Assembly (NCBI GenBank): GCA_035697145.1
Contig: DASSDL010000224.1
Span: forward strand, 4,484 to 68,483
Source: Acidimicrobiales bacterium
Lineage (GTDB): Bacteria > Actinomycetota > Acidimicrobiia > Acidimicrobiales > VFJN01
Length of the DNA: 64,000 bases
Direction: 5' to 3'
The position numbers were made by a program, and so were the translations under genes. This document shows, in pieces, positions 2,491 to 63,985 of this stretch (position 1 is its first letter; the number at the start of each line of letters is the position of its first letter). A model generated the notes under the pieces. That model worked only from the letters and a program-made list of their open reading frames with translations, was not told the DNA's origin and ran no database searches.

Positions 2491-3911
2491 ACGCCCCCCC
2501 GGCGGCGCGGCCTCCCGTTCCCGCCTCGCTGGTCACCGACCTCTACGAACTGACGATGGCGGCGGCCTACCAGGCCGCGGGCATCGAGCACGAGGCCACG
2601 TTCGAGCTGTTCGTGCGGCGACTGCCGCCCGAGCGCCGCTTCCTGGTGGCCGCCGGGCTCGATGATGCACTCGCCGGCCTGGAGGCGCTGGCCTTCGCGC
2701 CCCACGAGGTCGAGTACCTGGCCGGGCTCGGGCTGTTCCCGGCGCGCTTCATCGACCGGCTGTCAGACCTCCGGTTCACGGGCGAGGTTTGGGGGGTGCC
2801 GGAGGGTGACGTGGTCTTCGCCGGGGAGCCGATCGTGCGGGTCACGGCACCGTTGATCGAGGCGCAGCTGGTGGAGACGTTCCTGCTCAACGCCATCGCC
2901 AGCCGCACCATGCTGGCGTCCAAGGCGGCGCGGGTCGCCATCGCCTGCGATGGGCGCGACTTCGTGGACTTCTCCGCCCGGCGCGACCACGGCATCGACG
3001 CTGCCATGGCCGCCGCCCGCGGCGCGTGGATCTGTGGAGCGGCCGGCACCTCGCTGGTGGCCGCCGGGCAGCGCTGGGGCATCCCGCTGTCGGGGACGAT
3101 GGCGCACTCGTTCGTGATGTCGTTCGAGGACGAGCGCGATGCGTTCCGCGCCTACGCCCGCAGCTTCCCGCAGCACGCCGTCCTGCTGATCGACACGTAC
3201 GACACCGTCGAGGGTGCCCGCCACGCCGCCGAGGTCGCCCGGGAACTGGCGGGCGAGGGCGTCGGCGTCTCGGCGGTGCGCCTCGATTCGGGCGACCTGG
3301 GTCGGCTGGCCGACCAGGTGCGCGTCGTGCTCGACGAGGCCCGGCTTTCCGACGTCGGGATCCTGGCGTCCGGCGACCTCGACGAGCACCGCATCACCGA
3401 TCTAATGGCCGCGGGCGCGCCCATCGATTCCTTCGGCGTGGGCACGCAGCTCGGGACCAGCGGTGACGCCCCGTCGCTGGGCGCCGTCTACAAGCTGGTG
3501 GACGACGCCCTCGGGCCGAGGATGAAGCTCGCCGAGGGCAAGGTCACCCTGCCGGGCCGCAAGCAGGTCTGGCGCTTCGGCGATCGTGACGTTCTGGGCC
3601 TGCACGACGAGCATGTGGCCGGGGGGCGGGCGCTGCTGGTGCGCGCCATGGCCGACGGTCGGCGGGTCGAGCCGCCGGAGCCACTGGCGGCCACCCGCGA
3701 GCGCTGCCTGGCGGCGTTGGCCGGCCTGCCGCCGCAGCTCCGGTCCCTGGCTCCTGCGGGCGAGCCCGTGTGGCCGGTCGACGTCTCCGCAGGCCTGGGC
3801 GCGCTGGCCGAAAAGGTTCGGTTGGACCTGGAGGCTGCGCTGACGGCGCGGAACGTGCGCGACGGAGTGATGGGGAGTCCGCGTCCGGATCTGGAGGATC
3901 AGCAGCGTTGA
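2487..3911 (+). CDS. pncB: nicotinate phosphoribosyltransferase
   Basis: 474 aa. N-terminal SLVTDLYELTMAAAY signature of NAPRTase. ATGA overlap with the pncA stop (2487-2490). Confidence 0.9.
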   Translation: MNAPPAARPPVPASLVTDLYELTMAAAYQAAGIEHEATFELFVRRLPPERRFLVAAGLDDALAGLEALAFAPHEVEYLAGLGLFPARFIDRLSDLRFTGEVWGVPEGDVVFAGEPIVRVTAPLIEAQLVETFLLNAIASRTMLASKAARVAIACDGRDFVDFSARRDHGIDAAMAAARGAWICGAAGTSLVAAGQRWGIPLSGTMAHSFVMSFEDERDAFRAYARSFPQHAVLLIDTYDTVEGARHAAEVARELAGEGVGVSAVRLDSGDLGRLADQVRVVLDEARLSDVGILASGDLDEHRITDLMAAGAPIDSFGVGTQLGTSGDAPSLGAVYKLVDDALGPRMKLAEGKVTLPGRKQVWRFGDRDVLGLHDEHVAGGRALLVRAMADGRRVEPPEPLAATRERCLAALAGLPPQLRSLAPAGEPVWPVDVSAGLGALAEKVRLDLEAALTARNVRDGVMGSPRPDLEDQQR

Positions 3912-6457: not shown

Positions 6458-6510
6458 GACGCCCCGACGCGGAACCGGGCCGCCGCCACCCGGCGGTCGG
6501 CTTGGTTGGG

Positions 6511-6583
6511 TGGAGCCGACGCGGATCGAACGCGCTACCCCTTCCATGCCATGGAAGTGCTCTACCAACTGAGCTACGGCCCC
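6511..6583 (-). tRNA. tRNA-Ala (anticodon GGC)
   Basis: Reverse strand GGGGCCGTAGCTCAGTTGGTAGAGCACTTCCATGGCATGGAAGGGGTAGCGCGTTCGATCCGCGTCGGCTCCA. It has a 7-bp acceptor with G3:U70, anticodon loop AUGGCAU, and T-loop TTCGATC. CCA is not encoded (followed by CCC). Confidence 0.9.
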
Positions 6584-6714
6584 GTTTGGGAGGAGTCAGC
6601 GTACCGTCGTGCAGGCGTGCGTGTCACCCGCCGGCACCACGTGTCTCCCGCTCTTGGCGCCTTCGGCGCCGGGCCGCTCGGGCCACGGCCTCGCCTATCG
6701 GGTCGGCCTCTGGG

Positions 6715-9591
6715 TCAGCGCACCACGAAGTTGATGACGCGGCCGGGGACGGCGACGACCTCGCGGACCGTGCCGTCGGCGGCCAGCAGCGCCGCGACCT
6801 GCGCGTCGGCGCGGGCCGCAGCCTCCAGCGCGGCTTCGTCGGCGTCGGCCGGTAGCCGTATCCGGGCCCGAACCTTGCCGTTGATCTGCACCGGGATCTC
6901 CACCGTCTCGTCGATCAGCCACTCCGGGTCGGCCTCGGGGAAGGGCTCGGTGACCAGCGAGTCGGGGTGACCGAGCCGCGACCACAGCTCCTCGGCGATG
7001 TGCGGCGCCAGCGGCGCCAACAGCAGCACCAGCGGCTCGGCCGCGGCCAGGGGCACGCCTCCCTTCCGGAGATACTGCGCCGTCAGGTGGTTGTTGAGCT
7101 CCGTGATCTTGGCGACGGCGACGTTGAAGCGCAGCCTCTCCATGCCGTCGCGCACGGCCGCGATCGTCCGATGGAGGATGCGCTGGGTTTCGTCGTCGAG
7201 ATCGTCGTCGGTGACCGTGGTCTCGCCGGTCTCCTCGTCCACGACGTTGCGCCAGATCCGCTGCAGCAGCCGGTAGACCCCGACCACGGCCTTGGTCTCC
7301 CAGGGCCGGCTCTGGTCGAGCGGCCCCGAGAACATCTCGTACAGCCGCATCGTGTCGGCGCCGTAGCTCTCGTACATCTCGTCGGGCGCCACCGCGTTCT
7401 TGCGGCTCTTGCCCATGCGGCCCAGTTGGCGGTTGACCTGCTCGCCCCCGTGCCAGTACGCGTCGTCGTGTTCGGTGACCTCGTGGGCGTCGACGTAGAA
7501 GCCCCGCCGGTCGGTGTACTCGTAGGCCTGGATCAGCCCCTGGTTGTACAGGCGGTGGTAAGGCTCGAACGACGACACGTGCCCCAGGTCGTAGAGCACC
7601 TTGTGCCAGAACCGGGAGTAGAGCAGGTGCAGGACCGCGTGCTCGGCGCCGCCAACATAGAGGTCGACGCCGCCACAGTCGCCCTCCCACTTTGGGCCCA
7701 TCCAGTAGCGCTCGATCTCGGGATCGACCGGCGCCTTGTCGTTGTGGGGGTCGAGGTAGCGCAGCTCGTACCAGCACGATCCCGCCCAGTTGGGCATCGT
7801 GTTGGTGTCGCGGCGATAGGTCTTGGGGCCCTCTCCCAGATCGAGCGTGACGTTGACCCACTGGGTCGCCCGCGACAGCGGCGCCTCGGGCTCGGAGGTC
7901 TCGTCGTCCTCGGCGAAGGTCTTGGGGGAGTAGTCATCGACGTCCGGTAACACGACCGGCAGCATCGACTCCGGTATGGCGCGGGGCAGCCCGTCGTCGG
8001 GGTCGTAGACGATGGGGAACGGCTCGCCCCAGAACCGCTGCCGGCTGAACAGCCAGTCCCGCAGCTTGTAGGTGACGGTGCCGGTGCCGACCCCGGTGCG
8101 CTCCAGCCACTCGATGATCCGGTGCTTGGCCTCGGCGATCCCCAGGCCATTCAGGTCCACCGACTCGTTGGCGCTGTTGATGGCCGGGCCTTCACCCAGG
8201 TAGGGCTTGTCGGGCCAGCCTGCGGGGGGCTGGACCGTGCGCACGATCGGCAGGTCGAAGGCCTCGGCGAACGCCCAGTCGCGGTCGTCCTGACCGGGCA
8301 CCGCCATGATCGCCCCGGTGCCATAGCCCATGAGCACGTAATCGGCGATGAACACGGGGATCTCGCCGCCCGTGGCGGGGTTGACGGCGTAGCCGCCGAC
8401 GAACACGCCGGTCTTGTCCCGCGACTCGATCTGCCGTTCGACGTCCGACCGCTTTCCCGCGTGCCGGCGGTAGGCGGTGACCGCATCGGCCGGGGTGGCG
8501 TGGCCGCCGGTCCACCGGTCGGGGGTCCCCTCTGGCCATGCGGCCGCGGTCAGCTCGTCGACCAGTGGATGCTCGGGGGCCAGCACCATGTACGTGGCCC
8601 CGAACAGCGTGTCCTGCCGGGTGGTGAACACCTCGATGCCGGGACCGGCCGGGGTCGGGAATGTGACGCTGGCGCCCTCCGACCGCCCGATCCAGTTGCG
8701 CTGCATCAGCTTGATGCGCTCGGGCCAGTCCAGCTTGTCCAGGTCGCGCAGCAGCCGCTCGGCGTAGGAGGTGATGCGCAGCAACCACTGACGCAGCGGG
8801 CGGCGGAAGACCGGGAAGTTGCCGCGCTCGCTGCGGCCCTCGGACGTGACCTCCTCGTTGGACAGCACCGTCCCCAACGCCGGGCACCAGTTCACCGGCG
8901 CCTCGTTCACGTACGCCAGGCGGTGGTTGTCGACCACCACGCGGCGCTCCGTGGCTGTCAGCTCGGCCCACGGTCTACCCGTCGGGTTCGTGCCCTCGCC
9001 GGGCGCGCGGGTGCCGGCATCCAGTTCGGCGACCAGGTCGTCGATCGGCCGGGCCTGATCGCTGTCGGAGTCGTACCAGGAGTTGAAGATCTGCAGGAAG
9101 ATCCACTGGGTCCACCGGTAGTAGCCCTCGTCGATGGTGGCGATCGAGCGCCGGGAGTCGTGGCCCAGCCCCAGGCGCCGCAGCTGGCGACGCATGGTGA
9201 CGATGTTGGCCTCGGTCGTCGTGCGCGGGTGCTGGCCCGTCTGGACGGCGTACTGCTCGGCGGGCAGGCCGAACGCGTCGTAACCCATGGTGTGGACGAC
9301 GTTGTGCCCCGTCATCCGCAGGTAGCGGGCGTAGACGTCGGTCCCGATGTAACCCAGTGGGTGGCCGACGTGCAGCCCCGCGCCGCTGGGGTAGGGGAAC
9401 ATGTCCAGCACGTACCGCTTGGGCAGGTCCGCCACCTTGTCGAAGCCCTCGCTCAGGTCACCGACGGGGTTGGGGGCATAGAACGTTCCCTCGCGCTCCC
9501 AGCGGTCCTGCCAGCTGGTCTCGATGCGTCCCGCGAGCGCGGCCGTGTACCGGTACGGGGGCGGGTCAGACGACGGCGGCGGCTCGGCCAT
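6715..9591 (-). CDS. leuS: leucine--tRNA ligase
   Basis: 958 aa. [17 protein letters not shown] (HIGH region), editing domain, RMGKSRKN (KMSKS region). Confidence 0.97.
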
Positions 9592-37713: not shown

Positions 37714-39050
37714 TGGCCACCGACCGCTACGTCGTCCTTGGACTCGCCCGGGCGCGCGCGGCGTGGTTCGGGCAGGTGGCGCGCTGGGCGACCGCCGCGG
37801 CACTGCCGGTCGATTTCGTCAAGACGGTGTCGGGCGAGGAGGTGCGGGCCCGCCTGCGCTCGGGCCGCCCGTTCTCGGCGCTGCTGGTCGACGGGGGACT
37901 GGCGGCGCTCGACCGTGACCTGATCGACCTCGCTGGCCGCCACGGTTGCGCGGTCATTGCGGTCGACGACGGGCGGTCGGCCCGGTCGTGGCGCGACCTC
38001 GGCGTGGCGGCGGTGCTTCCCGCCGACGTCGAACGGGGAGTGTTGCTGGACGCCCTCCGCGCGGTGGCGCAACCCATCGCCCGCCGCGACGACTCGGCGG
38101 ACCTTCCCGACCCGGTGGACCCGGCGCCCGCACGCTGGCGGGGTCGGTCGGTGGCCGTGACCGGCTCGGGTGGCGTTGGTCGCTCGACGCTGGCGATGGC
38201 CATTGCCGCGGGGTTGGCGGCCGATCCTCGGGATGCCGGCTTGGTGCTTCTCGCCGACCTGGCGCTCCACGCGCAACAGGCACTGCTGCACGACGCCGGC
38301 GACGTCTTGCCCGGCGTCGCGGAGCTGGCCGATGCTTGCCGGGGCACGGCGCTCGACTCCGCCGAGGTGCGGAGGCTCTGCTTCTCGGTGCCGACCCGCG
38401 GCTACGACCTGCTGCTGGGGCTGCGACGCCACCGGGACTGGACGGCACTGCGGCCCCGGGCCGTGGCGGTCGCCCTCGACGGTGTGCGGCGCGCCTACCG
38501 GGTCGTGGTGAGCGACGTCGACCCTGACGTCGAGGGCGAGGCAGAGTGCGGATCGCTCGACGTAGAGGACCGGAACCTGCTGGCCCGTACGGCCCTCCGG
38601 AACGCCGAGGTAGTCCTGGTGGTTGGCCACCCGGGAATGGCGGCCGTCCATGCGCAGCTGCGGGTCGTGCGCGACCTCGTCGAATTCGGCGTCGCCGGCG
38701 CCCGGATCGTGCCCGTCGTCAACCGGGCGCCCCGCGGCCCGCGGCAGAGAGCCGAGCTCGCGGCCACGCTCGCGGGCACGTTGCTGGCGGCCGCGTGTCC
38801 CGGCGTCACCCTGGCCTCGACCCCGATCTTCGTCCCCGAGCGACGCCGGCTCGACGACCTGGTCAGGGACGGCGCACCCCTGCCGCCACAGATCGTCCGC
38901 CCGGTCACAGGAGCGGTCCGGGCGTTGCTCGACCGAACGCCCGAGCTACCGGCGCCGCCCCGGCCGCCCGAACCCGTGGTGGTGGCGCCCGGATCCCTGG
39001 GTAGCTGGGCCGCCGACGATGGCGAGCCCGACGAGAAGGCTGGGTCGTGA
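37713..39050 (+). CDS. tadZ: TadZ/CpaE (Ssd-like) ParA/MinD-family pilus localisation protein, degenerate P-loop
   Basis: ATG 37713 shares one nt with the cpaB stop. Receiver-like N-domain, then VAVTGSGGVGRSTLAMA in place of the deviant Walker A KGGxGK[ST]. Confidence 0.75.
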   Translation: MATDRYVVLGLARARAAWFGQVARWATAAALPVDFVKTVSGEEVRARLRSGRPFSALLVDGGLAALDRDLIDLAGRHGCAVIAVDDGRSARSWRDLGVAAVLPADVERGVLLDALRAVAQPIARRDDSADLPDPVDPAPARWRGRSVAVTGSGGVGRSTLAMAIAAGLAADPRDAGLVLLADLALHAQQALLHDAGDVLPGVAELADACRGTALDSAEVRRLCFSVPTRGYDLLLGLRRHRDWTALRPRAVAVALDGVRRAYRVVVSDVDPDVEGEAECGSLDVEDRNLLARTALRNAEVVLVVGHPGMAAVHAQLRVVRDLVEFGVAGARIVPVVNRAPRGPRQRAELAATLAGTLLAAACPGVTLASTPIFVPERRRLDDLVRDGAPLPPQIVRPVTGAVRALLDRTPELPAPPRPPEPVVVAPGSLGSWAADDGEPDEKAGS

Positions 39051-40408
39051 CCCCGTCCACGTGGCGGCCCGAACGCCTCGCCGGCGCCACGCCGTCACCG
39101 CTGGTCGAGATCGAGCGCCTCGTCCAGGAGCGGGCCAAGGACGTATCGCTGGAGATGTCGTCCCCGGGGGGAGAAGCCAAGCTCAGGGCGCTCATCGCGG
39201 AGGAGGTGGCGCGCTGGGGCGACGACCACCGACGCGGGCGGCGGCCGTTTGCACTCGCCGATCCCGATCAGGTCGTCGAGCGCGCCTTCCGCAACCTGGC
39301 GCGCTACGGCCCACTCACCCCGCTGCTCGACGACGACGACGTGTGGGAGATCATGGTGAACGATCCCCAGACGGTGTTCGTGCGCCGCCATCGTGGCCAG
39401 TCGGGGTACCACGACGAGGTCTTCCACGACGACGACCACGTGCTGCGGACGCTGACCAAGCTGCTCGACGACGCGTCCAGCGCCCACCGCAAGCTCGATC
39501 CGGCCGACGGCCTCCAGGACGCGCAGCTCGACGACGGCGCGCGGGTCCACATCGTCCACGGGGACGTCGCGCGCGGCGGGCATGTGCTCGTGAACATCCG
39601 GAAGTTCACGGGCATCCCGTTCGCCTCGCTCGACGAGCTGGTCGGGCGGGGCATGCTCACGGCACGGGTGGCGGCGTTCCTACGGGCCTGTGTGCAGGCG
39701 CGGCTCTCGATCGTGTTCGCCGGCCATCCCGGCGCCGGCAAGACGACGCTGCTGTCGTGCACCGCGGCCGAGCTCGACCCGGCGCTGCGGGTGGTGGTGG
39801 CCGAGGAGGTGTTCGAGGCCGACATTCCGCTGCCCAACGTCGCCCACATGCAGACCCGCGCGGCCCGCTCGGACCGCGAGCCGGTCGACCTGCGGCGGTT
39901 GGTGGCGGGATTCCTGCGCATGGCACCCGACGTGGCCATCGTTGGCGAGGTGCGGGACCGCGAGGCGCTGCCCCTGCTCCTGACGCTGTCGTCGGGGGTC
40001 ACCGGGTTCACGACGATCCACGCCGGGTCGGCGCGCCAGGCGCTGACCCGGTTGCGGTTCGTGTGCCAGCTCGCCGACGCGCCAGGCGGGCTGCCGCTGG
40101 CGGCGCTCAACACGCTGGTGAGCGAGAGCATCGACGTGGTCGTGCACTGCACCCGCACGGCCGGCGGGCCGCGGGTGACCGAGCTCGTCATGGTCGAGGA
40201 CCTGCAGGGCGGGCTCGACGCCACGCAGTTCACGGTCACCGAGGTGTTCCGGCGGCCCGGGCCCGACCAGGCGCTGGCGTGGACCGGCAACCTGCCCGTC
40301 CGGGCCGCTCGAGCGTTGGCTGACGCCGGTCATGATGTCCGGCGGCTGCTGGACGATCGTTCCGGCGCCGGTGTCGAGCGCCTCGAGGTTCGGGGGGCGA
40401 TCGTATGA
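39047..40408 (+). CDS. tadA: Tad secretion ATPase CpaF/TadA
   Basis: GTGA overlap with tadZ. FAGHPGAGKTTLL (Walker A), RMAPDVAIVGEVRDREA, TGFTTIHAGSA. Confidence 0.95.
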   Translation: MTPSTWRPERLAGATPSPLVEIERLVQERAKDVSLEMSSPGGEAKLRALIAEEVARWGDDHRRGRRPFALADPDQVVERAFRNLARYGPLTPLLDDDDVWEIMVNDPQTVFVRRHRGQSGYHDEVFHDDDHVLRTLTKLLDDASSAHRKLDPADGLQDAQLDDGARVHIVHGDVARGGHVLVNIRKFTGIPFASLDELVGRGMLTARVAAFLRACVQARLSIVFAGHPGAGKTTLLSCTAAELDPALRVVVAEEVFEADIPLPNVAHMQTRAARSDREPVDLRRLVAGFLRMAPDVAIVGEVRDREALPLLLTLSSGVTGFTTIHAGSARQALTRLRFVCQLADAPGGLPLAALNTLVSESIDVVVHCTRTAGGPRVTELVMVEDLQGGLDATQFTVTEVFRRPGPDQALAWTGNLPVRAARALADAGHDVRRLLDDRSGAGVERLEVRGAIV

Positions 40409-40554
40409 GCGAGCGTCCGTCGAGGGTGACGGGGAAGCACGGTGAGAGCGAGCCGAGGGCCCGAGCGGCCCGCCGCCGTAGGCGGCAAGAGCGGGAGTCG
40501 ACGCGTCGGAGCCCGAGCGGCCCGCTGCGAAGCAGCAAGAGCGGGAAGCGATGA
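40405..40554 (+). repeat. intercistronic ATGA-to-ATGA mini-ORF repeat, copy A (49 codons, internally duplicated)
   Basis: The ATG overlaps the tadA TGA and the TGA overlaps the tadB ATG. Its 5' 14 nt and its 3' 24 nt (plus the terminal ATGA) are identical to the reverse-strand copy at 63905-63985. Confidence 0.8.
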
Positions 40555-41435
40555 CCGGGCTCGTGGTGGCGCTCTGTGCTGCCGTCGGGACCTACTACCT
40601 GTACACGGCGCTGGTGCTCGGCTGGCGGGGACTGCGCCCGGGTCCGCCGGTGGCGCGGCCGGCCCCGAGTCGGCGCGGCGCGTCGGACTGGCTCGCGCAG
40701 GCGGGCGTGGGTGACGTCAGCGTGCGGCAGTTCGTGCTTGTCACCGCGGCGCTGATGGCGTTGGGGGCCCTCGGCGGACTGGCCCTGTTCGGCGCGGCCC
40801 TTCCGGCGTTGGTCCTGGCCCTGTGCGTCGGGGCCGCTCCGTTCGCGTCCTACCGGGTGCGCCGCCAGCAGCTGCGGGCCGCCGCCCAGGAGGCCTGGCC
40901 GCGACTGATCGAGGAGATCCGCATCCGCACCTCGGGCCTGGGCCGGTCGGTGCCCCAGGCCCTGTTCGAGGCGGGTGAACGGGCGCCCGCCAGCCTCCGT
41001 CCGGCGTTCGCAGCGGCGCAGCGGGAATGGGTGCTCTCGACGGACTTCGAGCGCACGGTGGCGGTTCTGAAGGACGGGCTGGCGGATCCCACCGCGGACG
41101 CCGCCTGCGAGACCCTGCTGGTGGCGCACGAGGTGGGCGGCAGCGACCTCGACCGGCGGCTGGAGGCGCTGATCGAGGACCGCGTGATCGACGTCCAGGG
41201 CCGCAAGGACGCGCGTTCGAAGCAGGCCGGCGTGCGCTTCGCACGACGGTTCGTGCTCCTCGTCCCGTTGGGCATGGCGCTGGTGGGCATGTCGGTTGGC
41301 AACGGGCGGGCGGCCTACGCCACACCGTGGGGCCAGACGATGGTCGTCATCGGGATCACCTCGGTGGTGGCGTGCTGGGTGTGGGCGGGGCGGCTGCTCA
41401 GGCTGCCCGAAGAGCAGCGGGTCTTCTTCGAGTAG
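40551..41435 (+). CDS. tadB: Tad platform protein TadB (T2SS F family)
   Basis: 294 aa. N-terminal TM, cytoplasmic helical domain, C-terminal TM pair. Position directly after tadA. Confidence 0.85.
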   Translation: MTGLVVALCAAVGTYYLYTALVLGWRGLRPGPPVARPAPSRRGASDWLAQAGVGDVSVRQFVLVTAALMALGALGGLALFGAALPALVLALCVGAAPFASYRVRRQQLRAAAQEAWPRLIEEIRIRTSGLGRSVPQALFEAGERAPASLRPAFAAAQREWVLSTDFERTVAVLKDGLADPTADAACETLLVAHEVGGSDLDRRLEALIEDRVIDVQGRKDARSKQAGVRFARRFVLLVPLGMALVGMSVGNGRAAYATPWGQTMVVIGITSVVACWVWAGRLLRLPEEQRVFFE

Positions 41436-41454
41436 GCGTGGTCGAGGAGGTGAG

Positions 41455-42369
41455 GTGAACCAGACTCAGCTGTTGGCGACGGGGGCGCTGGCGCTGTTCG
41501 CCGGCACGACGCTGCTGCTGAGCCGGATCCGGTGGTTCCGGCGGCGGCCGCTGGTGGACCGCTTGGCGCCCTATGTTCCCGGTGGGTCGACGGCGCGGAG
41601 TACCAGCGTCCTGCTGTCGGCGGACACCTTCGGGCAGGTGATCGGGCCCGTGGCCCGAGCCGTGGGGGAGCGGGTGGCACGGGCGGTGGGCGTGACCGAG
41701 TCGCTGGCGCTGCGGCTCGAGCGGATCGGATCGACGCTCGACGTCACCGCCTTCCGGGTCCGCCAGCTGGCATGGGCCGCGGTCGGCCTGGTGGCCGGAA
41801 CCGTCGTCGCCGTGGCCACCCAGCAGTCGGGACCGGTGGCACTGCTCCTGATCGTGACCGGGCCGTTGATCGGCTTGCTGGTGGTCGAGCAGCGCCTGGC
41901 CTTGGAATCGCAGGCGTGGCAGCGCCGCATCGTCCTGGAGCTTCCGGTCGTGGCCGAGCAGCTCGGCATGCTGCTGTCGGCCGGCTATTCGTTGGGTGCC
42001 GGGCTCAGCCGGCTGGCCGCCCGCGGCAAGGGCGCGTGCGGCCGGGACCTACAAAGGGTGGTCGGCCGCATCCGCCAAGGGCTGTCGGAGACCGAGGCGT
42101 TGCGGGAATGGGCGACGGTGGCCGACGTCGACGCCCTCCACCGGCTGGTCGGGGTCCTGGCGCTCAACCGCCAGTCAGGCGACCTGGGGCGGTTGATCGG
42201 CGAGGAGGCCCGGGCGATCCGCCGCGACGTCCATCGAGAGCTGATCGAGACCATCGAGCGCCGCGGTCAGCAGGTCTGGATCCCGGTAACCGTCGCCGCG
42301 CTGGTACCAGGTGTCATCTTCCTGGCGGTGCCGTTCATCGACGCCCTCAGCCTGTTCGCCAACTCGTGA
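41455..42369 (+). CDS. tadC: Tad platform protein TadC (T2SS F family)
   Basis: GTG 41455 preceded by GAGGAGG. LPVVAEQLGMLLSAGYSLGAGL motif of the T2SSF domain. Confidence 0.85.
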   Translation: MNQTQLLATGALALFAGTTLLLSRIRWFRRRPLVDRLAPYVPGGSTARSTSVLLSADTFGQVIGPVARAVGERVARAVGVTESLALRLERIGSTLDVTAFRVRQLAWAAVGLVAGTVVAVATQQSGPVALLLIVTGPLIGLLVVEQRLALESQAWQRRIVLELPVVAEQLGMLLSAGYSLGAGLSRLAARGKGACGRDLQRVVGRIRQGLSETEALREWATVADVDALHRLVGVLALNRQSGDLGRLIGEEARAIRRDVHRELIETIERRGQQVWIPVTVAALVPGVIFLAVPFIDALSLFANS

Positions 42370-42380
42370 AGGAGTCAGTC

Positions 42381-42566
42381 ATGTCATTGTCAAGTGCCCA
42401 GGGCACGAGGTTCGGTCGAGACGATCGCGGCGAAGGGGTCATCTCGGCAGCGATCGCCGTGCTGATCATGGCGTTCCTCGGGGCGCTGATGTGGGTCGGG
42501 TTCAAGTCGATGTGGGACACCACCGAGCAGAAGACCAACGACCAGATCGAGCAGATCGGGGGGTGA
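42381..42566 (+). CDS. flp: Flp-type (class III signal peptide) pilin candidate, atypical
   Basis: 61 aa, GAAGGAG 7 nt upstream. MSLSSAQGTRFGRDDRGEG|VISAAIAVLIMAFLGALMWVGF: basic leader + Gly + hydrophobic helix. The position after tadC matches actinobacterial Flp genes, but it lacks the G/xxxxEY Glu-Tyr. Confidence 0.55.
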   Translation: MSLSSAQGTRFGRDDRGEGVISAAIAVLIMAFLGALMWVGFKSMWDTTEQKTNDQIEQIGG

Positions 42567-43883: not shown

Positions 43884-45916
43884 GCGCCTCGAAGGTCCCG
43901 GAGGAAACTCTCGATCTCGGCGCGGTCCTTCGTGCGGCGCATCCTTGGGAGGGTGGCGACGATCTTGGGCCCGTACCGCGCCGTCGCCAGGCGGGGGTCG
44001 AGCACGGCGACGGCCCCTCGATCGGTGGCCGTGCGGATGAGGCGGCCGGCGCCCTGTGCCAACAGCGTGGCGGCCCGCGGTACGTCGATGGCGTCGAACG
44101 CACCTGCGCCGACGTGCTCCCGCCGAGCCTGCAGGAGCGGGTCGTCGGGCCGTGGGAACGGCAGGCGGTCGATGCTGACCAGCGACAGGGACGGCCCCGG
44201 CACGTCGATGCCCTGCCAGAAGCTCATCGTGGCGAACAGGCACGTCTCGGGATCGCCGGCGAACCGGTCGACCAGCGCCGGCTTGGGCAGGTCGCCCTGG
44301 GCGAGCAGCGGGTAGGAGAGGCGCTCGCGCAGCGCCTCGACGGCGTGGTCCATGGCCCGATAGCTGGTGAACAACGCCAACGTGCGGCCGCCGGCGGCCT
44401 CGACGAGCGCGGCCAGCTCGTCGACTGCGGCGTCGCCCCAGCGCGGATCGGTGGGCCGGGGCAGCCGCGCCGCGCAGTAGATGAGGCCGTTGGCCTGGTA
44501 GTCGAACGGGCTGCCCACGTCGAGCGGCCCCTCGGACCCCGCCGACAACCCGAGCCGGGCGCCAAACCCGGGGGCGATGGTGGCGCTCGTCAGCACCGCC
44601 GGCCGCCGCGACCAGAGCTGACGCTGCAACAGCGGCGCGACGTCCAATGGCGCCAGACGCAGCATTGGCGCCCGCTCGGGCCCGGACACGAACAGCACGT
44701 GGCCCTCAGCCGGTTGCGCCACGGCGTCGATGTCGTCGAGGAGGGACGTCGCCGCCTGGCGCGCCCGCACCGCCCGGGCCGTGGCGTCGTCGGTGGCATC
44801 GTCGGGGATCGACCGCAGCGCCGCCAGTGCCTCCTCGACGCGGTTGCGCAGCCGCACCAGAGCGTCGGCCAGGTCTGTGGGGAGCGGGGTTACGAGACGC
44901 CGGTCGCGGTGTCCCACCAGGGCGTCGGTGAGCAGGCTGCCGGCGTCGTTGACCCGGGCGATGGTGTCGCCGGCGTCGGCGAGGATGCCGCGCAGTGCCC
45001 GGGCGAGGTGGGCGAACCGCCCGGCGGCCAGCTCGACCCCGGCGGTGGCCGAGATGATGTCGTCGATCTGGTGGGCCTCGTCGATGATGGCGACGTCATG
45101 GTCGGGCAGGACGCCGCCGTCGCTGGCCAGGTCGATCCCGTAGAGGTGCTGGTTGACGACCACAACGTCGGCCGCGGCGGCGCGAGCCCGAGCGGCCTCG
45201 GCGAAGCAGTCGTCGCCGCGAGGGCAGCGGTGGGCGCCGGGGCAGTCGCGCGCGGTGGTGCTCACCGCAGCCCATGCCGCCTCGGAGGGCTCGTGGTCGA
45301 GGTCGGCCCGGTCGCCGGTGGAGGTCGTACGGGCCCAGTCGGACAGGCGCGCCAGCTCGACGGGGTCTGCCCGCTCGGCGAACCCGTCGATGTGGTCGAG
45401 CCCCAGCTGTTCCCCGCCGGCGGGGAGATCGGCGTCGGTCGAGCCGGGGGCCAGCTCTGCGAGGCGTTGAGCGCAGAGGTAGTTGGAGCGACCCTTGAGG
45501 ACCGCCCAGTCGAAGGGATCATCCAGGTGCTCGTCGAGGAAGGGCAGGTCCTTGGTGGCGAGTTGGTCTTGCAGCGCCCGGGTGGCGGTGGCGACGACGA
45601 CCCGGCGGCCCGAGAGGATGGCCGGGACCAGGTAGCCCAGCGTCTTGCCGGTGCCGGTGCCGGCGCGCACGACCAGATGGCGCCCTTCGGTCACCGCCGT
45701 GGCGACCGCCTCGGCCATCTCGACCTGACCCGGCCGCGCTTCGCCGCCACCGGGCAGTGCTGCCACCACCCGCTCGAGCGCAGCTGCGCTGCGGTTCCCG
45801 CTGTCGGTCGCCGGCAACTGGCCAGTCGGCGCCTGGTCGACCTCGGGTTGCGGCATCGCCGGCGACCGTAGCGTGGTATCGGGCCGAGCCTGGCCACTGT
45901 CGAGAAGGTCGGTCAT
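43880..45916 (-). CDS. dinG: DinG/XPD-family ATP-dependent DNA helicase (Fe-S type)
   Basis: VVRAGTGTGKTLGYL (Walker A), AIIDEAHQ (DEAH), and four Cys in LCAQ...DCPGAHRCPRGDDCF. ATGA overlap with the adnB stop. Confidence 0.85.
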   Translation of the reverse strand: MTDLLDSGQARPDTTLRSPAMPQPEVDQAPTGQLPATDSGNRSAAALERVVAALPGGGEARPGQVEMAEAVATAVTEGRHLVVRAGTGTGKTLGYLVPAILSGRRVVVATATRALQDQLATKDLPFLDEHLDDPFDWAVLKGRSNYLCAQRLAELAPGSTDADLPAGGEQLGLDHIDGFAERADPVELARLSDWARTTSTGDRADLDHEPSEAAWAAVSTTARDCPGAHRCPRGDDCFAEAARARAAAADVVVVNQHLYGIDLASDGGVLPDHDVAIIDEAHQIDDIISATAGVELAAGRFAHLARALRGILADAGDTIARVNDAGSLLTDALVGHRDRRLVTPLPTDLADALVRLRNRVEEALAALRSIPDDATDDATARAVRARQAATSLLDDIDAVAQPAEGHVLFVSGPERAPMLRLAPLDVAPLLQRQLWSRRPAVLTSATIAPGFGARLGLSAGSEGPLDVGSPFDYQANGLIYCAARLPRPTDPRWGDAAVDELAALVEAAGGRTLALFTSYRAMDHAVEALRERLSYPLLAQGDLPKPALVDRFAGDPETCLFATMSFWQGIDVPGPSLSLVSIDRLPFPRPDDPLLQARREHVGAGAFDAIDVPRAATLLAQGAGRLIRTATDRGAVAVLDPRLATARYGPKIVATLPRMRRTKDRAEIESFLRDLRGA

Positions 45917-60450: not shown

Positions 60451-62643
60451 ATGCTGCAGCGCCTCGCCCGCTTCTGTTACCGGCGTCGGTGGCGGGTCCT
60501 GGGTGGCTGGGTCGTCTTGCTGGTCGGCCTGTTCGCGCTCAACTCGACCGTCGGTGGCAAGTTCCTGGATGAGTTCGACCTACCGGGATCCGAGAGCCAG
60601 GAGGCGGTCGACCTCCTCGAGGGGCACGGCTTCAACGACCGCGCGGGCGCCACGGGCCAGATCGTCTTCAAGGCCGACGACGTCACCGACGCCACGGTCC
60701 AACGCGAGATGGAGCCGCTGTTCGACCAGATCGCCGAGATCACCGCCCCCAGCCAGGTGGTGAGCCCCTACAGCGACGAGGGCGCCCACCAGATCAGCTC
60801 GCGCGGCCCTGAGGCCGGCAAGATCGCCTACGCCGAGGTCAACCTCACCGACCGCGACAGCGACGAGCTGTACGACATCGGGACGGAGGCCCGGGAGGCG
60901 GTCGCCAACGCCGACATACCCGGCGTCCAGGTGGAGCTCGGTGGTGACATCGCCTTCGAGCAGGCGGAGTTCTCGAGCGAGGTGATCGGCTTCGTCGCCG
61001 CGCTGATCATCCTGCTCATCGCCTTCGGTTCGCTGCTGGCTGCGGGCTTGCCGCTCGTCACCGCCATCTTCGGCATCGTCACCGGCATCGCCATCGTCGG
61101 GCTGGCGGTCAACGTCATCGGCATGCCGAGCTTCTCGAACCAGGCCGTGGCGATGATCGGCATCGGTGTCGGCATCGACTACGCCCTGTTCATCGTCACC
61201 CGCTATCGCGAGGGCCTGAGCGAGGGGCTGACGCCGGAGTGCGCGACGATGCGCGCCCTCGACACCGCCGGCCGGGCCGTGCTCTTCGCGGGCTGCACGG
61301 TGATCATCGCCATCCTCGGCCTGTTCACCATCGGCCTGGAGATGATCCGGGGCTTGGCGGTCGGCATCTCTATCGGCGTGCTCATGACGATGCTCGCGTC
61401 GCTCACGCTCCTGCCGGCCATCCTCGGGTTCGTCGGCACCAACATCGACAGGCTCGGGCTGCCCCACCGCCGGCGCGCCGAGCGTGCCGGTCGGCAGTCG
61501 TTCTGGTACCGCTGGAGCCGGGTGATCCAGCGCCGGCCCTGGCCGGCCCTGCTTGCCTCCGCGGCCGTCCTGCTCCTGCTGACGATTCCACTCTTCGGCA
61601 TGCGGCTGGGTTTCGGCGATGCCGGCAACCAACCGACCGACTTCACCGTCCGGCGGGCCTACGACCTGATGTCCGAGGGCTTCGGCCCCGGGGCCAACGG
61701 GCCGTTGCTGCTCGCCGCCGAGACGCCGGGCGGTCAGTCCGACCTGCAGGCGCTCGAGGGCCTGTCCCGGGACCTCAACCAGGCCGAGGGAGTCGTCTTC
61801 GCGACGGCGCCGATCCCCAACGAATCCGGCGATGCGGCCATCATCCAGGTGCAGCCGACCACGTCGCCCCAGGACAAGGAGACCGCACATCTGGTGAACC
61901 GCCTACGCGACGACGTCATCCCCGATGCCGTCGCGGGCACGACCGCCGACGTGAAGGTCGGTGGCGCGACGGCGGCCGTCGTGGACTTCTCGAGATACAT
62001 CTCCGAACGTCTGCCCTGGTTCATCGCCGCCGTGCTCGTGCTGTCGTTCGCCCTGTTGATGCTCGCATTCCGCAGCCTGCTGGTGCCGCTCAAGGCGGTG
62101 ATCATGAACCTGCTGTCGGTCGGCGCCGCCTACGGGATCCTCGTGGCGGTCTTCCAGTGGGGCTGGGGGGACAGCCTGCTGGGTGTTGGTCGTGAGGGCC
62201 CCATCGAGGCCTGGATCCCGATGTTCCTGTTCGCCGTGATCTTCGGCCTGTCGATGGACTACGAGGTGTTCCTCCTGTCGCGCATCCGGGAGGAGTACGA
62301 CCGCACGCACGACAACGGCACCGCGGTCGCCAACGGGCTGGCCGTGACCGCCAGGGTCATCACCGCGGCCGCGGCGATCATGTTCTGCGTCTTCTTCAGC
62401 TTCGTGCTCGGCGACGATCGGTCGCTGAAGATGTTCGGGTTCGGGTTGGCCGTGGCGGTGCTGATCGATGCCACGGTCGTCCGGCTCGTGCTCGTGCCCG
62501 CCACGCTGGAGCTGCTGGGCGACCGCAACTGGTGGCTGCCGCGGTGGCTCGACCGCATCCTGCCGGTCGTCCACGTCGAGGCCGACGAGGAGGTGGTTGC
62601 CGGTACCGCCCCCGAGCTGCGCGAACCCGAGAAGGTGGGCTGA
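60451..62643 (+). CDS. MMPL-family (RND superfamily) membrane transporter
   Basis: 730 aa. MLQRLARFCYRRRWRVLGGWVVLLVGLFAL, two 5-6 TM bundles each followed by a soluble loop, GIDYALFIVTRYRE / GLSMDYEVFLLSRIREE motifs. Confidence 0.9.
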   Translation: MLQRLARFCYRRRWRVLGGWVVLLVGLFALNSTVGGKFLDEFDLPGSESQEAVDLLEGHGFNDRAGATGQIVFKADDVTDATVQREMEPLFDQIAEITAPSQVVSPYSDEGAHQISSRGPEAGKIAYAEVNLTDRDSDELYDIGTEAREAVANADIPGVQVELGGDIAFEQAEFSSEVIGFVAALIILLIAFGSLLAAGLPLVTAIFGIVTGIAIVGLAVNVIGMPSFSNQAVAMIGIGVGIDYALFIVTRYREGLSEGLTPECATMRALDTAGRAVLFAGCTVIIAILGLFTIGLEMIRGLAVGISIGVLMTMLASLTLLPAILGFVGTNIDRLGLPHRRRAERAGRQSFWYRWSRVIQRRPWPALLASAAVLLLLTIPLFGMRLGFGDAGNQPTDFTVRRAYDLMSEGFGPGANGPLLLAAETPGGQSDLQALEGLSRDLNQAEGVVFATAPIPNESGDAAIIQVQPTTSPQDKETAHLVNRLRDDVIPDAVAGTTADVKVGGATAAVVDFSRYISERLPWFIAAVLVLSFALLMLAFRSLLVPLKAVIMNLLSVGAAYGILVAVFQWGWGDSLLGVGREGPIEAWIPMFLFAVIFGLSMDYEVFLLSRIREEYDRTHDNGTAVANGLAVTARVITAAAAIMFCVFFSFVLGDDRSLKMFGFGLAVAVLIDATVVRLVLVPATLELLGDRNWWLPRWLDRILPVVHVEADEEVVAGTAPELREPEKVG

Positions 62644-62715: not shown

Positions 62716-63123
62716 TCAGTCGCTCTCGGGCCGCCACGCCCGGGAGCGCTTGCGTTCGGCGGCGCGGCGCTTGGCCTCGAGCCGGGCCTCACGTGCGGCG
62801 CGCGACGGGCGGGTGGGACGGCGGGGGGCAACGACCGTCGCCGCATCGTCGAGGGTGGCGGCGAGCCGGCCCCGGGCGATTGTCCGGTTGCGCCACTGCG
62901 AACGCGATTCGTCGGCGCGCACGCGCACGACCGGACCCATGCGCTCGCGCACTCGGTCGGCGCCGGGCCCGTCGAGCGCCGTCAGGTCGGCCACGACCTC
63001 CACCGCGGACGCGGTGACGTTGCGGTGCTGGCCGCCGGGCCCCGACCCGCGCGCGAACCGCTCGTCGAGCGCGGCCGCCGGGAGGCGCAGCCCGCGCCGC
63101 GTCACGAGGTCGCCGTCACTCAT
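62716..63123 (-). CDS. arfB: alternative ribosome-rescue factor ArfB (peptidyl-tRNA hydrolase, GGQ)
   Basis: 135 aa. RGSGPGGQHRNVTASAVE (GGQ motif) and a basic tail PRRPTRPSRAAREARLEAKRRAAERKRSR. ATGA overlap with the permease stop. Confidence 0.85.
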   Translation of the reverse strand: MSDGDLVTRRGLRLPAAALDERFARGSGPGGQHRNVTASAVEVVADLTALDGPGADRVRERMGPVVRVRADESRSQWRNRTIARGRLAATLDDAATVVAPRRPTRPSRAAREARLEAKRRAAERKRSRAWRPESD

Positions 63124-63908
63124 GGCAGGAGGAGCGCGCCGAGGCGGCGGCCGGCGACACGGATCCCGACCCCGCCCACGGCCGCCAGGTAGGCGGCGTT
63201 CAGCAGCAAGGTGGGCGAGAGATCGCCGAGGATGAGCGCCCGCTCCAGGGCGACCCCCTGGTAGAGGGGACTGATCCGGACCACCCATTCGAGGGCCGCC
63301 GGGTACTGGCTCAGGGGGAAGAACGTGGCCGAGAACAAGAACAGCGGGACGATCGCGAGCTGCACGTAGTCGAAGTCCACGAACGAGCGCATGTAGGTGG
63401 TCAAGCCCATCCCGGCACCGGCGAAGCCGAAGCCGATGAGCAGGGCGGCCGGCAGTGCCAGCACGGCCCAGCCCGACGGCGTGAGGTCCATCGCCCACAT
63501 GGTCACCAGGAACACGCTGGCATAGAGCGTGGCTCGCAGCAGTGCCCACGTGACCTCGCCCCGCACCACGTCCTGCACGCCGAGCGGAGTGGCGAGCATC
63601 CCGTCGAACGTCCTGGCGTACTTGAACTTGAAGAAGAAGTTGAACGTCGTGTCGAACACCGTGCCGTTCATGGCCGAGGTCGCCAGCAGGGCGGGCGCGA
63701 CGAACACGTCGTAGGGGATCGGGCGGCCGCCGGGCCCCGGCAGGTCGCCCACCAGCTCGCCGACCCCGATGCCGATGGAGAACAGGTAGAAGACCGGTTC
63801 GAAGAAGCCGCTGAGGAAGACGGGCCACATCCGTAGGTAGGAACGGGTGTTGCGCTCGACGATCCGCAGGGCCCGCCGCGTGCCGAGCATCGCCACTGCG
63901 GTGCTCAT
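63120..63908 (-). CDS. ABC-2 type transporter permease
   Basis: MSTAVAMLGTRRALRIVERNTRSYLRMWPVFLSGFFEPVFYLFSIGIG... Six hydrophobic segments. ATG 63908 forms ATGA with the stop of the repeat mini-ORF. Confidence 0.8.
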   Translation of the reverse strand: MSTAVAMLGTRRALRIVERNTRSYLRMWPVFLSGFFEPVFYLFSIGIGVGELVGDLPGPGGRPIPYDVFVAPALLATSAMNGTVFDTTFNFFFKFKYARTFDGMLATPLGVQDVVRGEVTWALLRATLYASVFLVTMWAMDLTPSGWAVLALPAALLIGFGFAGAGMGLTTYMRSFVDFDYVQLAIVPLFLFSATFFPLSQYPAALEWVVRISPLYQGVALERALILGDLSPTLLLNAAYLAAVGGVGIRVAGRRLGALLLP

Positions 63909-63985
63909 TGCTTCCCGCTCTTGCTGCTTCGCACCGGGCTGCTCGGGCCACACTCGCTCTCTCGCCCTACGGGACGCTCGCTCAT
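63905..63985 (-). repeat. intercistronic ATGA-to-ATGA mini-ORF repeat, copy B (26 codons)
   Basis: Reverse strand ATGAGCGAGCGTCCCGTAGGGCGAGAGAGCGAGTGTGGCCCGAGCAGCCCGGTGCGAAGCAGCAAGAGCGGGAAGCAATGA encodes MSERPVGRESECGPSSPVRSSKSGKQ. It shares both ends with copy A. Confidence 0.8.

Follow-up and report, generated by a model that had tools for sequence, protein, structure and literature searches.

Introduction

Mycobacterial interspersed repetitive units (MIRUs; Supply et al., 1997) are described, in the portions of PMC12548453, PMC3184786 and PMC4213456 that deal with them, as repeats of 40 to 100 bp that occur in tens of dispersed copies between the genes of operons. The corresponding portions of PMC12548453 and PMC3184786 describe a small open reading frame (ORF) that overlaps the flanking stop and start codons at a spacing of -4, and those of all three sources describe tetranucleotide direct repeats at the ends, empty and filled sites, G-C-rich inverted repeats and a length that varies between strains. 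Reports of MIRUs are confined to M. leprae and the M. tuberculosis complex (PMC4213456). Here we examined a 64,000-nucleotide stretch of an Acidimicrobiales bacterium (GenBank assembly GCA_035697145.1, contig DASSDL010000224.1, positions 4,484 to 68,483; referred to below as the window), in which a mini-ORF of 81 nt (copy B) and a longer relative (copy A) lie across the stop/start overlaps of adjacent genes.

To our knowledge, MIRUs have been the only textbook example of a mobile repeat whose self-protection lies in keeping translational coupling intact. How they move and how they affect expression are poorly understood, partly because the copies in M. tuberculosis are few and nearly fixed. 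We consider it likely that copies A and B are insertions of a small, non-autonomous mobile repeat that is widespread in the Acidimicrobiales and is placed at stop/start overlaps in such a way that coupling would be preserved through a relay. A second family of this kind, in a different bacterial class and with many length variants, natural empty/filled pairs and an untranslated sister form, makes it possible to address whether a relay mini-ORF is needed for downstream expression, whether its length tunes the protein ratio and which agent mobilizes the element.

Results

Copies A and B and the junctions they occupy

Copies A and B belong to the form of the repeat that spans stop/start overlaps (type 1). 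Their parts and flanking genes are as follows, with scores from covariance model (CM) R1.

63905..63985, minus strand: copy B, an 81-nt type-1 element and putative relay mini-ORF at the permease-1/permease-2 stop/start overlap.
63982..63985, minus strand: 5' ATGA of copy B; TGA 63984..63982 is the permease-1 stop and ATG 63985..63983 the mini-ORF start.
63965..63973, minus strand: mini-hairpin CCC-GTA-GGG of the copy B 5' module; the family form is CCC-GNA-GGG, with all four bases found at N.
63909..63949, minus strand: core unit of copy B, GGCCCGAGCAGCCCG-GTGCGAAGCAGC-AAGAGCGGGAAGCA; 62.6 bits.
63905..63908, minus strand: 3' ATGA of copy B, element-borne; TGA 63907..63905 is the mini-ORF stop and ATG 63908..63906 the permease-2 start.
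63120..63908, minus strand: ABC-2 permease-2 gene downstream of copy B, 262 aa, Pfam ABC2_membrane.
40405..40554, plus strand: copy A, a 150-nt type-1 element of 49 codons with ATGA at each end, a long 5' module and two core units.
40416..40433, plus strand: hairpin of the long 5' module of copy A, TCCGTC-GAGGGT-GACGGG; in other copies, the short CCC-GNA-GGG module takes its place.
40458..40500, plus strand: core unit 1 of copy A, with the compensated stem GCCGCC-GTA-GGCGGC; 58.2 bits.
40510..40550, plus strand: second core unit of copy A; its stem, GCTGC-GAA-GCAGC, is the canonical one; 65.2 bits; followed by the 3' ATGA at 40551..40554.
39047..40408, plus strand: gene for a T2SSE-family (CpaF/TadA-like) ATPase, ending in a stop, TGA 40406..40408, within the 5' ATGA of copy A.
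40551..41435, plus strand: gene for a 294-aa hydrophobic protein in the TadB position; its ATG lies within the 3' ATGA of copy A.

The initial annotation, which was made from the letters of the window, had placed an 81-nt minus-strand ORF at 63985..63905 between two ATGA tetranucleotides, the second of which opens the ABC-2 permease gene, and this description was borne out; the ORF has 26 codons and the product MSERPVGRESECGPSSPVRSSKSGKQ. The likeness between the two copies that it had noted at the ends and in blocks of the middle was also found, the first 13 nt being identical, 26/27 of the last nucleotides being identical and the blocks GAGAGCGA and GGCCCGAG being common to both. With up to 3 mismatches, the shared 3' 27-mer had two matches in the window (copies A and B) compared to none in 100 shuffles. 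The blocks GCCCGAGCGGCCCGC and GCAAGAGCGGGA are each present twice in copy A, spaced 50 to 52 nt apart by k-mer offsets, and copy A is longer than copy B owing to its longer 5' module and two units of the ~41-nt core. Tandem Repeats Finder did not report this internal duplication of copy A, a miss attributed to units that are too diverged or carry indels. Copy B has one stem mismatch in its inner hairpin at 63935..63923 (GGTGC/GCAGC) and one core substitution, and hence is regarded as a slightly decayed or aged copy.

When the window was scanned with CM R1, four core units scored 65, 63, 58 and 55 bits and nothing else scored above 19 bits. A match of 19 bits at 45185..45208 was taken as chance because it lies in a GC-rich stretch and has no element flanks. 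The initial annotation had missed the second core unit of copy A and had not listed the differently built copy that accounts for the 55-bit score (6634..6710, minus strand; described below).

Permease-1 at copy B is cut by the window edge 15 nt upstream of the element, so that only its end (...RRLAA and the stop) remains, and the arrangement of this operon was read from relatives. An exact-protein look-up of the window's permease gave no record, and homologues were used in its place. The contig L116, whose permease is 99% identical, carries an ABC ATPase, a permease-1 of 273 aa ending in ...RTFTRRLAA and the stop, the element and permease-2; the operon in L055 (93% identical) is arranged in the same way at this junction. 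From these sequences, the operon order at copy B is read as ATPase, permease-1, element and permease-2, which puts the junction between two ABC-2 permease paralogues. Both copies had been annotated as lying between a gene for, or expected to be for, a cytoplasmic ATPase and the gene for its membrane partner. This held for copy A, which lies between the T2SSE ATPase and a membrane protein within a tad-like operon, but not for copy B, where permease-1 is upstream in L116 and L055. The 294-aa protein encoded at 40551..41435 had no confident family match.

Frame 2 of the element is open as well (window 63120-63953, minus strand; proteins P0002, P0036 and P0042-P0044). Gene callers therefore push the permease N terminus into the element, giving forms of 277 aa and 275 aa instead of the true 262 aa, an artifact that recurs in annotations. 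In practical terms, the elements mislead gene callers, and the junctions are annotated as "intergenic" gaps of 80 to 150 nt.

Empty and filled orthologous sites

Comparison of orthologous junctions with and without the element showed that it is an insertion. At the copy B site, L118 (85% identical) has a plain GTGA overlap between the permeases (...AAGCTGGCCCC GTGA GTACC...), where the window reads ...GCGGC ATGA[77 nt ending in ATGA] GCACC.... Filled versions of this site were 81 nt long in the window, 96 nt in L116 and L117 and 135 nt in L055. Permease-1 ends at the identical residue with or without the element (RRLAA and the stop in L116; KLAP and the stop within GTGA in L118), so the copy B stretch is not a C-terminal tail, and in-frame read-through of the upstream gene, an alternative raised in the initial annotation, was excluded.

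For copy A, a metagenome scan yielded 70 orthologous TadA/TadB junctions, with the following distribution.

4-nt NTGA overlap: 53/70 loci.
TGATG overlap: 6/70 loci.
Element present: 5/70 loci (window, 150 nt; L122, 135 nt; L127, 135 nt; L126, 120 nt; L034, 96 nt).
Other spacers: 6/70 loci.

In a neighbor-joining tree, filled and empty TadA/TadB loci interleaved in one clade of >88% identity, and the deeper clades were all empty. This interleaving implies several gains or several seamless losses. The preference for ATGA-type stop/start overlaps proposed in the initial annotation was supported, the empty orthologous sites being plain NTGA overlaps in L118 and at 53 of the 70 Tad loci. The proposed tie to pairs of a cytoplasmic ATPase and its membrane partner was not, as copy B lies between permeases and other copies lie at diverse gene pairs or single genes.

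Occupancy also differed at neighboring junctions. One of these lies in the same tad-like operon as copy A.

42563..42566, plus strand: unoccupied GTGA stop/start overlap; L121, L123, L131 and L127 are occupied here.

In L121, L123 and L131, the TadA/TadB junction is empty and a variant of the element lies between a pilin-like gene and the next gene, at the site where the window has the GTGA at 42563..42566; in L127, both junctions are occupied. L200 carries a diverged copy right after the permease-2 stop, between permease-2 and an RF-1 gene; the corresponding site is a 15-nt spacer in L118 and an ATGA overlap in the window. A rough gene call of the window gave four unoccupied NTGA junctions, to which the sites at 42563 and at ATGA 63120 can be added, compared to two occupied junctions.

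The terminal tetranucleotides were unequal in four copies (L001, L003, L032 and L055), which have GTGA at the 5' end and ATGA at the 3' end; the reverse was never found. This asymmetry and the empty GTGA of L118 imply that the 5' NTGA is the target and that the 3' ATGA is borne by the element. The sequences indicate that the element sits immediately after the upstream stop codon and supplies a new stop/start overlap to the downstream gene. The downstream genes at occupied sites often start with ATGAGCGAG (MSE...), the same bases as the 5' end of the element (L083, L027, L065, L092, L018, L111 and L012). The shared bases suggest either microhomology at insertion or derivation of the 5' module from a gene start.

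Several smaller differences were seen at these sites. Between the window (63905-63985) and L116 (2513-2608), in which the permeases are 99% identical, the contigs differ at this one site by a swap of the 5' module of the element, the window having the short CCC-GTA-GGG form (81 nt) and L116 the long CCGTC-GAGGGT-GACGG form plus extra bases (96 nt). This swap suggests gene conversion between copies. At the copy B site, L119 has a 10-nt spacer (2988-3003; GTGA GCGGGGGACC ATGA) and L200 a 39-nt in-frame mini-ORF (2467-2503; GTGAGCGAGC...ATGA); these short spacers start in the same way as the element and may be remnants of an internal deletion between its GAGCG repeats. In the P0006 contig (JGI 3300041966), from a 91% relative, the permease-1/permease-2 junction appears empty and a gap of 81 nt separates the ABC ATPase from permease-1; this gap may be a candidate element at a true ATPase/permease junction. 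The TadA/TadB junction of L156 has a 278-nt spacer with three tandem copies of a unit that resembles the start of the downstream gene, each bounded by GTGA...GTGA, and that of L148 has an 88-nt spacer with a single gene-start-like unit of this kind, also bounded by GTGA...GTGA. In L156 and L148, local duplication created the relay mini-ORFs, which have no relation to the repeat family.

A dispersed family with a conserved hairpin core

The extent of the family was examined with an 18-nt seed from the 3' block, for which the ATGA was not required, in one genome per species. Among the matches listed there were >115 loci, the large majority from Acidimicrobiales or unclassified Actinomycetota metagenome-assembled genomes (MAGs), and in these loci the flanks beyond the seed were also conserved. 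Seed matches in unrelated phyla showed no flank similarity and were set aside as chance. At least ~14 seed loci among the matches listed came from one MAG. In related DNA totaling 0.64 Mb, CM R1 picked out 97 cores.

The core GGCCCGAGCGGCCCG-[hairpin]-AAGAGCGGGAAGC is common to at least two forms. Type 1 consists of (A/G)TGAGCGAGCGTCC..., a 5' module, one or two cores and A-ATGA. It has one or two core units at most, and its 5' hairpin module is short or long. Type 2 consists of a stop codon, GAGGCTGCGCC-GAYA-GGCGTAGCC, the core and ACGGACCACGG, and lies directly after stop codons; TGA, TAA or TAG directly abuts its first bases in ~19 of 27 copies. Its length between anchors was 77 nt in 23/27 copies, and since it barely varies, the use of type 2 as a control for length phase was dropped. 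The window contains one type-2-like copy.

6634..6710, minus strand: type-2-like copy with a 5' hairpin and a core (6642..6684; 55.4 bits) with the stem GGCGCC-GAA-GGCGCC.

This copy is untranslated; a TGA stop (6717..6715) precedes it by 4 nt, and a tRNA-Ala(GGC) gene (6509..6583) follows ~50 nt downstream. Direct tandem copies of the family were present in L009, L010, L011 and L084. Apparent "tandem arrays", in which an element is followed by ATGAGCGAGCG, were mostly the downstream gene itself starting with MSE..., and true tandems of this sort were rare (L042 and L112).

The stems of the inner hairpin of the core are fully complementary across variants (GCTGC/GCAGC, GCCGCC/GGCGGC, GGCGCC/GGCGCC, GGCC/GGCC, GCTGCC/GGCAGC and the swapped GCAGC/GCTGC), and the loops are mostly G-N-A. 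Among 50 distinct sequences of this hairpin, 96.7% of the cells were paired. Double-sided changes numbered 21 compared to 2.7 expected, with none of 500 shuffles reaching 21, and the covariation score was 0.184 compared to at most 0.021 for slid controls. These results indicated that the hairpin itself is conserved. C-GNA-G triloop hairpins are especially stable in single-stranded DNA, which hints, and does no more than hint, that the hairpin acts at the DNA level. In RNA folding, the type-2 consensus was far more stable than its shuffles (z = -6.1).

No match to Rfam was obtained in the window at the gathering threshold, and a sensitive-mode search of five element-bearing loci gave two weak matches only, both outside the elements. 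The core was not matched in viral contigs, and a literature search found no account of such repeats in the Acidimicrobiales.

The variant at the pilin-like junction of the tad-like operon can be regarded as a third one, with GTCCGAGCGAAGGCGAGGACCCG at the 5' end, the swapped stem GCAGC-GAA-GCTGC and a 3' end of ...GGGAAGC followed by ATG, without the TGA overlap. It was located at L121:3440-3570, L123:3420-3545, L131:3440-3620 and L127:3490-3620, in each case with the small pilin-like gene on one side and the gene after it on the other. In two unrelated copies (L024:~1183-1320 and L027:6099-6243), a palindromic element of another kind (...CTAGATCGACAC...GTGTCGATCTAG...) was nested inside the core, flanked by GGCCCGA and GCGGCCC, and hence the core may be a target of another small mobile element.

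Maintenance of the relay frame and orientation

Intact type-1 copies were 75, 81, 96, 102, 111, 120, 135 or 150 nt long, and 24 of 28 anchored copies had a length divisible by 3. Start and stop overlaps with a spacing of -4 were present at both ends of the ORF in both window copies and in 22/29 seed-linked type-1 copies. The copies were then divided according to whether a real gene ends in the 5' NTGA, as judged by the periodicity of G+C content at third codon positions (GC3), with duplicate table rows collapsed by hand.

A real upstream gene ends in the 5' NTGA: relay unbroken in 22/22 copies and at 11/11 independent sites.
No real upstream gene ends there: relay unbroken in 7/14 copies and at 6/13 independent sites.

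The association between an intact relay and the class of site had a P value of 4e-4 by copies and 0.006 by independent sites (Fisher). An apparent exception in L065, between DnaK and GrpE, is a deletion derivative of 46 nt in which a GTG overlaps the DnaK stop and gives an in-frame extension of GrpE by 14 codons. Judged from these sequences, the data showed that selection keeps the relay frame open where coupling would be at stake.

Variation within the element is greatest at the N of the CCC-GNA-GGG loop; this base is the second of its codon and gives A, E, G or V. The 49-aa product of copy A had no homologues among 5.8 billion called proteins. These two findings and the untranslated core of type 2 place the conservation at the nucleotide level rather than the peptide level.

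The genes at other copies were varied. Pfam assignments were obtained for a DnaK/GrpE pair, for the genes downstream of three other copies, which encode RbfA, an FAD-oxidase and an ABC ATPase, and for a GlmU-like gene. By translation only, a sensor kinase/response regulator pair was recognized, as were an Fe-S oxidoreductase-like gene upstream of the FAD-oxidase, a PadR-like gene upstream of an ABC ATPase and flanking genes of LysR-type, epimerase-like and RNase PH-like products; the RbfA copy has an unnamed upstream ORF. At several single-gene sites, such as that of the GlmU-like gene, the "upstream ORF" was an artifact of the wrong frame. Orientation was strongly biased, with 39 copies sense to both flanking genes compared to one antisense to both, and the downstream gene was co-oriented with the element in 60 cases compared to 4.

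Discussion

Relationship to known repeats

The family resembles MIRUs in many respects. Its copies are 75 to 150 nt long, dispersed and located between operon genes, with a -4-overlap ORF and terminal tetranucleotides; there are empty and filled orthologous sites and internal G-C-rich inverted repeats, and length or unit number varies at one locus. It differs in its hosts, which belong to a different class of Actinomycetota, and in being modular, with a core shared with an untranslated stop-codon variant, a feature not described for MIRUs in the portions of PMC12548453, PMC3184786 and PMC4213456 that deal with them. Multi-unit tandem arrays, typical of MIRU-VNTR (variable-number tandem repeat) loci, are rare in the Acidimicrobiales family, with at most two type-1 core units. 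Because the host class differs and MIRUs have been reported only from the species named above, the elements were classed as a new family. It appears to be an undescribed family of a MIRU-like kind and not MIRU proper, the likeness being one of architecture.

The REP and BIME elements associated with RAYT (Y1/HUH) transposases (PMC2817692) offer a second comparison. Type 2 is similar to them in its length of ~80 nt, its G-C richness and strong folding, its location at the 3' flanks of genes and its many near-identical copies per genome, which are sometimes in tandem. No inverted pairs (REPIN/BIME) were seen among copies of the family, which are single or in direct tandem, and a predicted translated relay between coupled genes, as in type 1, is not a property of REPs. 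The REP2 element of Neisseria (PMC3184786) likewise has its own ribosome-binding region and ATG and is fused to the starts of downstream genes, but it also has a promoter, acts as a 5' untranslated region (UTR) and is not described there as a stop/start relay. The Rickettsia RPE and enterobacterial RU/ERIC fusions (PMC3184786 and PMC2759123) resemble the family in that selection filters for open frames and in that some derivatives become N-terminal extensions, as on GrpE in L065; those elements join a host protein, whereas the mini-ORF here is separate and lies between two intact genes. The classical criteria for MITEs, the miniature transposable elements with inverted repeats, do not describe type 1, which has no terminal inverted repeats (5' end, ATGAGCGAGCG; 3' end, GGGAAGCAATGA) and has a 3- to 4-nt direct repeat, (N)TGA, of which the 3' copy appears to be element-borne.

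IS200/IS605-type elements, which transpose as single strands, and their miniature derivatives go in immediately 3' of a specific short target, with no long duplication; they have subterminal hairpins, keep a strict orientation and leave seamless empty sites. The likeness of the Acidimicrobiales family to them is pure resemblance, and the stop-codon target may simply reflect selection.

Proposed relay and its weak points

How insertion could leave coupling intact can be set out as follows. The left end of the element abuts the upstream stop codon and the right end brings its own ...GGGAAGCA-ATGA, so that insertion into a 4-nt NTGA overlap turns one overlap into two: the upstream stop overlaps the mini-ORF start, and the mini-ORF stop overlaps the downstream start supplied by the element. 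A ribosome reaching the end of the upstream gene would start again on the mini-ORF, open up and traverse the element, terminate there and start once more on the downstream gene; such termination-reinitiation is reviewed in PMC12548453. Through this reinitiation relay, translational coupling would survive the insertion. Since the insertion would then be nearly harmless, such junctions could be tolerated "safe harbors", with selection for an open frame and a length that is a multiple of 3. Near-harmless insertion would explain the enrichment at overlap junctions, the multiple-of-3 lengths and the sense orientation. The peptide of the mini-ORF is probably a by-product.

Some points weigh against this interpretation. 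Translation of the mini-ORF and reinitiation after it are predicted from the sequence, and the mode by which the element moves is likewise conjectural. The call of a real upstream gene was a GC3 heuristic, and copies of one master share its length, so only length variants and independent sites count as independent evidence for maintenance of the frame. The seed biased the sampled loci toward the canonical core, and the CM alignment was fitted to the structure under test. Type-1 RNA was no more stable than its shuffles, the z scores of copy B, copy A and the 81-nt consensus being -0.3, -0.1 and -1.9, respectively. The interleaving of filled and empty Tad loci was obtained from a neighbor-joining tree of a 234-aa segment from metagenome contigs. 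A tblastn search of 1.19 Mb with approximate IS608 TnpA and E. coli RayT probes, which are weak probes, yielded no transposase or other mobilizing gene and matched only an unrelated Sedimenticola locus.

A more far-reaching version of the interpretation is possible, although we regard it as doubtful: the family could be an independently evolved counterpart of MIRUs, in which a REP-like hairpin element at stop codons gave rise to an ATG(A)-ended derivative that colonizes stop/start overlaps as a relay, perhaps moving by single-strand HUH/Y1-like insertion after TGA and by seamless excision. If this were true, 4-nt gene overlaps would offer the selfish DNA of high-GC bacteria a general "safe harbor" niche, and the numerous natural filled/empty pairs would be a ready-made termination-reinitiation experiment.

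Alternative explanations

The alternative that deserves most attention, although it is unlikely, is that the element is an adaptive regulatory spacer whose hairpins, length or relay efficiency set the expression ratio of the flanking genes or the stability of the mRNA, so that it would be more than a selfish insertion that is tolerated. The initial annotation had raised this possibility as a tuning of stoichiometry; it would be compatible with the favored interpretation of a mobile relay. The nearly constant sense orientation fits such a role, as do the modular changes of length at one site (81 compared to 96 nt in near-identical strains, and 96 to 150 nt at the Tad site) and the high stability of type 2 (z = -6.1) right after stop codons. 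REP-like elements after stop codons are known to affect mRNA stability. Promoter activity has also been reported for the MIRU-containing senX3-regX3 spacer (PMC4213456). However, most relatives run the same junctions as plain 4-nt overlaps, the flanking gene pairs are functionally unrelated to one another and type-1 copies are not unusually structured. The flicker of presence and absence among close relatives also looks closer to turnover of a neutral or selfish kind. It is very improbable that the mini-ORF is a true gene encoding a conserved micropeptide (MSERP...RSSKSGKQ) with a function of its own. Most copies do have an open frame with a proper start and stop, and the peptide termini are conserved between copies, but it is the nucleotides that are conserved, and type 2 carries the core in untranslated form. 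Furthermore, the peptide measures between 24 and 49 aa as modules are gained or lost, variation is greatest at a nonsynonymous second codon position in the hairpin loop, the frame breaks down at sites with no coupling to preserve, each lineage has dozens of copies at unrelated loci and the search of 5.8 billion called proteins gave no homologues.

Slightly less probable still is that the elements are not mobile and arose in place by slippage or duplication, in the manner of a VNTR. The internal tandem unit of copy A, the variation of length at one site and the true local duplications with GTGA...GTGA mini-ORFs at the Tad junctions of L156 and L148 speak for such an origin. Against an origin in place are the near-identical sequences of 75 to 135 nt at many unrelated loci in many genomes, the lack of likeness to the flanking genes other than in the first few codons in some cases and the empty orthologous sites, which are exact NTGA overlaps. 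Chance likeness of GC-rich low-complexity sequence, or a C-terminal tail of the upstream gene, has a negligible probability. The genome is ~70% G+C, and the 15-nt 5' motif taken by itself was not significant at 3 mismatches (6 matches compared to 6.05 expected). For the 27-nt 3' block, by comparison, the two matches were not reproduced in any of the 100 shuffles, and the element cores scored 55 to 65 bits over a background of at most 19 bits; chance similarity, which the initial annotation had itself named as an alternative, was thereby excluded. A tail is contradicted by the orthologues, in which the upstream gene stops at one and the same residue whether the element is there or not.

Other features of the window

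Farther along the tad-like operon, one more gene was assigned to a family.

41437..42366: gene after that of the 294-aa protein, with a T2SSF domain.

In the copy B operon, the permease-2 stop overlaps the start of the next gene in an unoccupied ATGA (63123..63120, minus strand). This next gene spans 62716-63123, and its orthologues in L116-L119 carry an RF-1 domain. Beyond the operon, the opposite strand carries two genes, one of the MMPL family (60451-62643) and one with MarR-type regulators as its orthologues.

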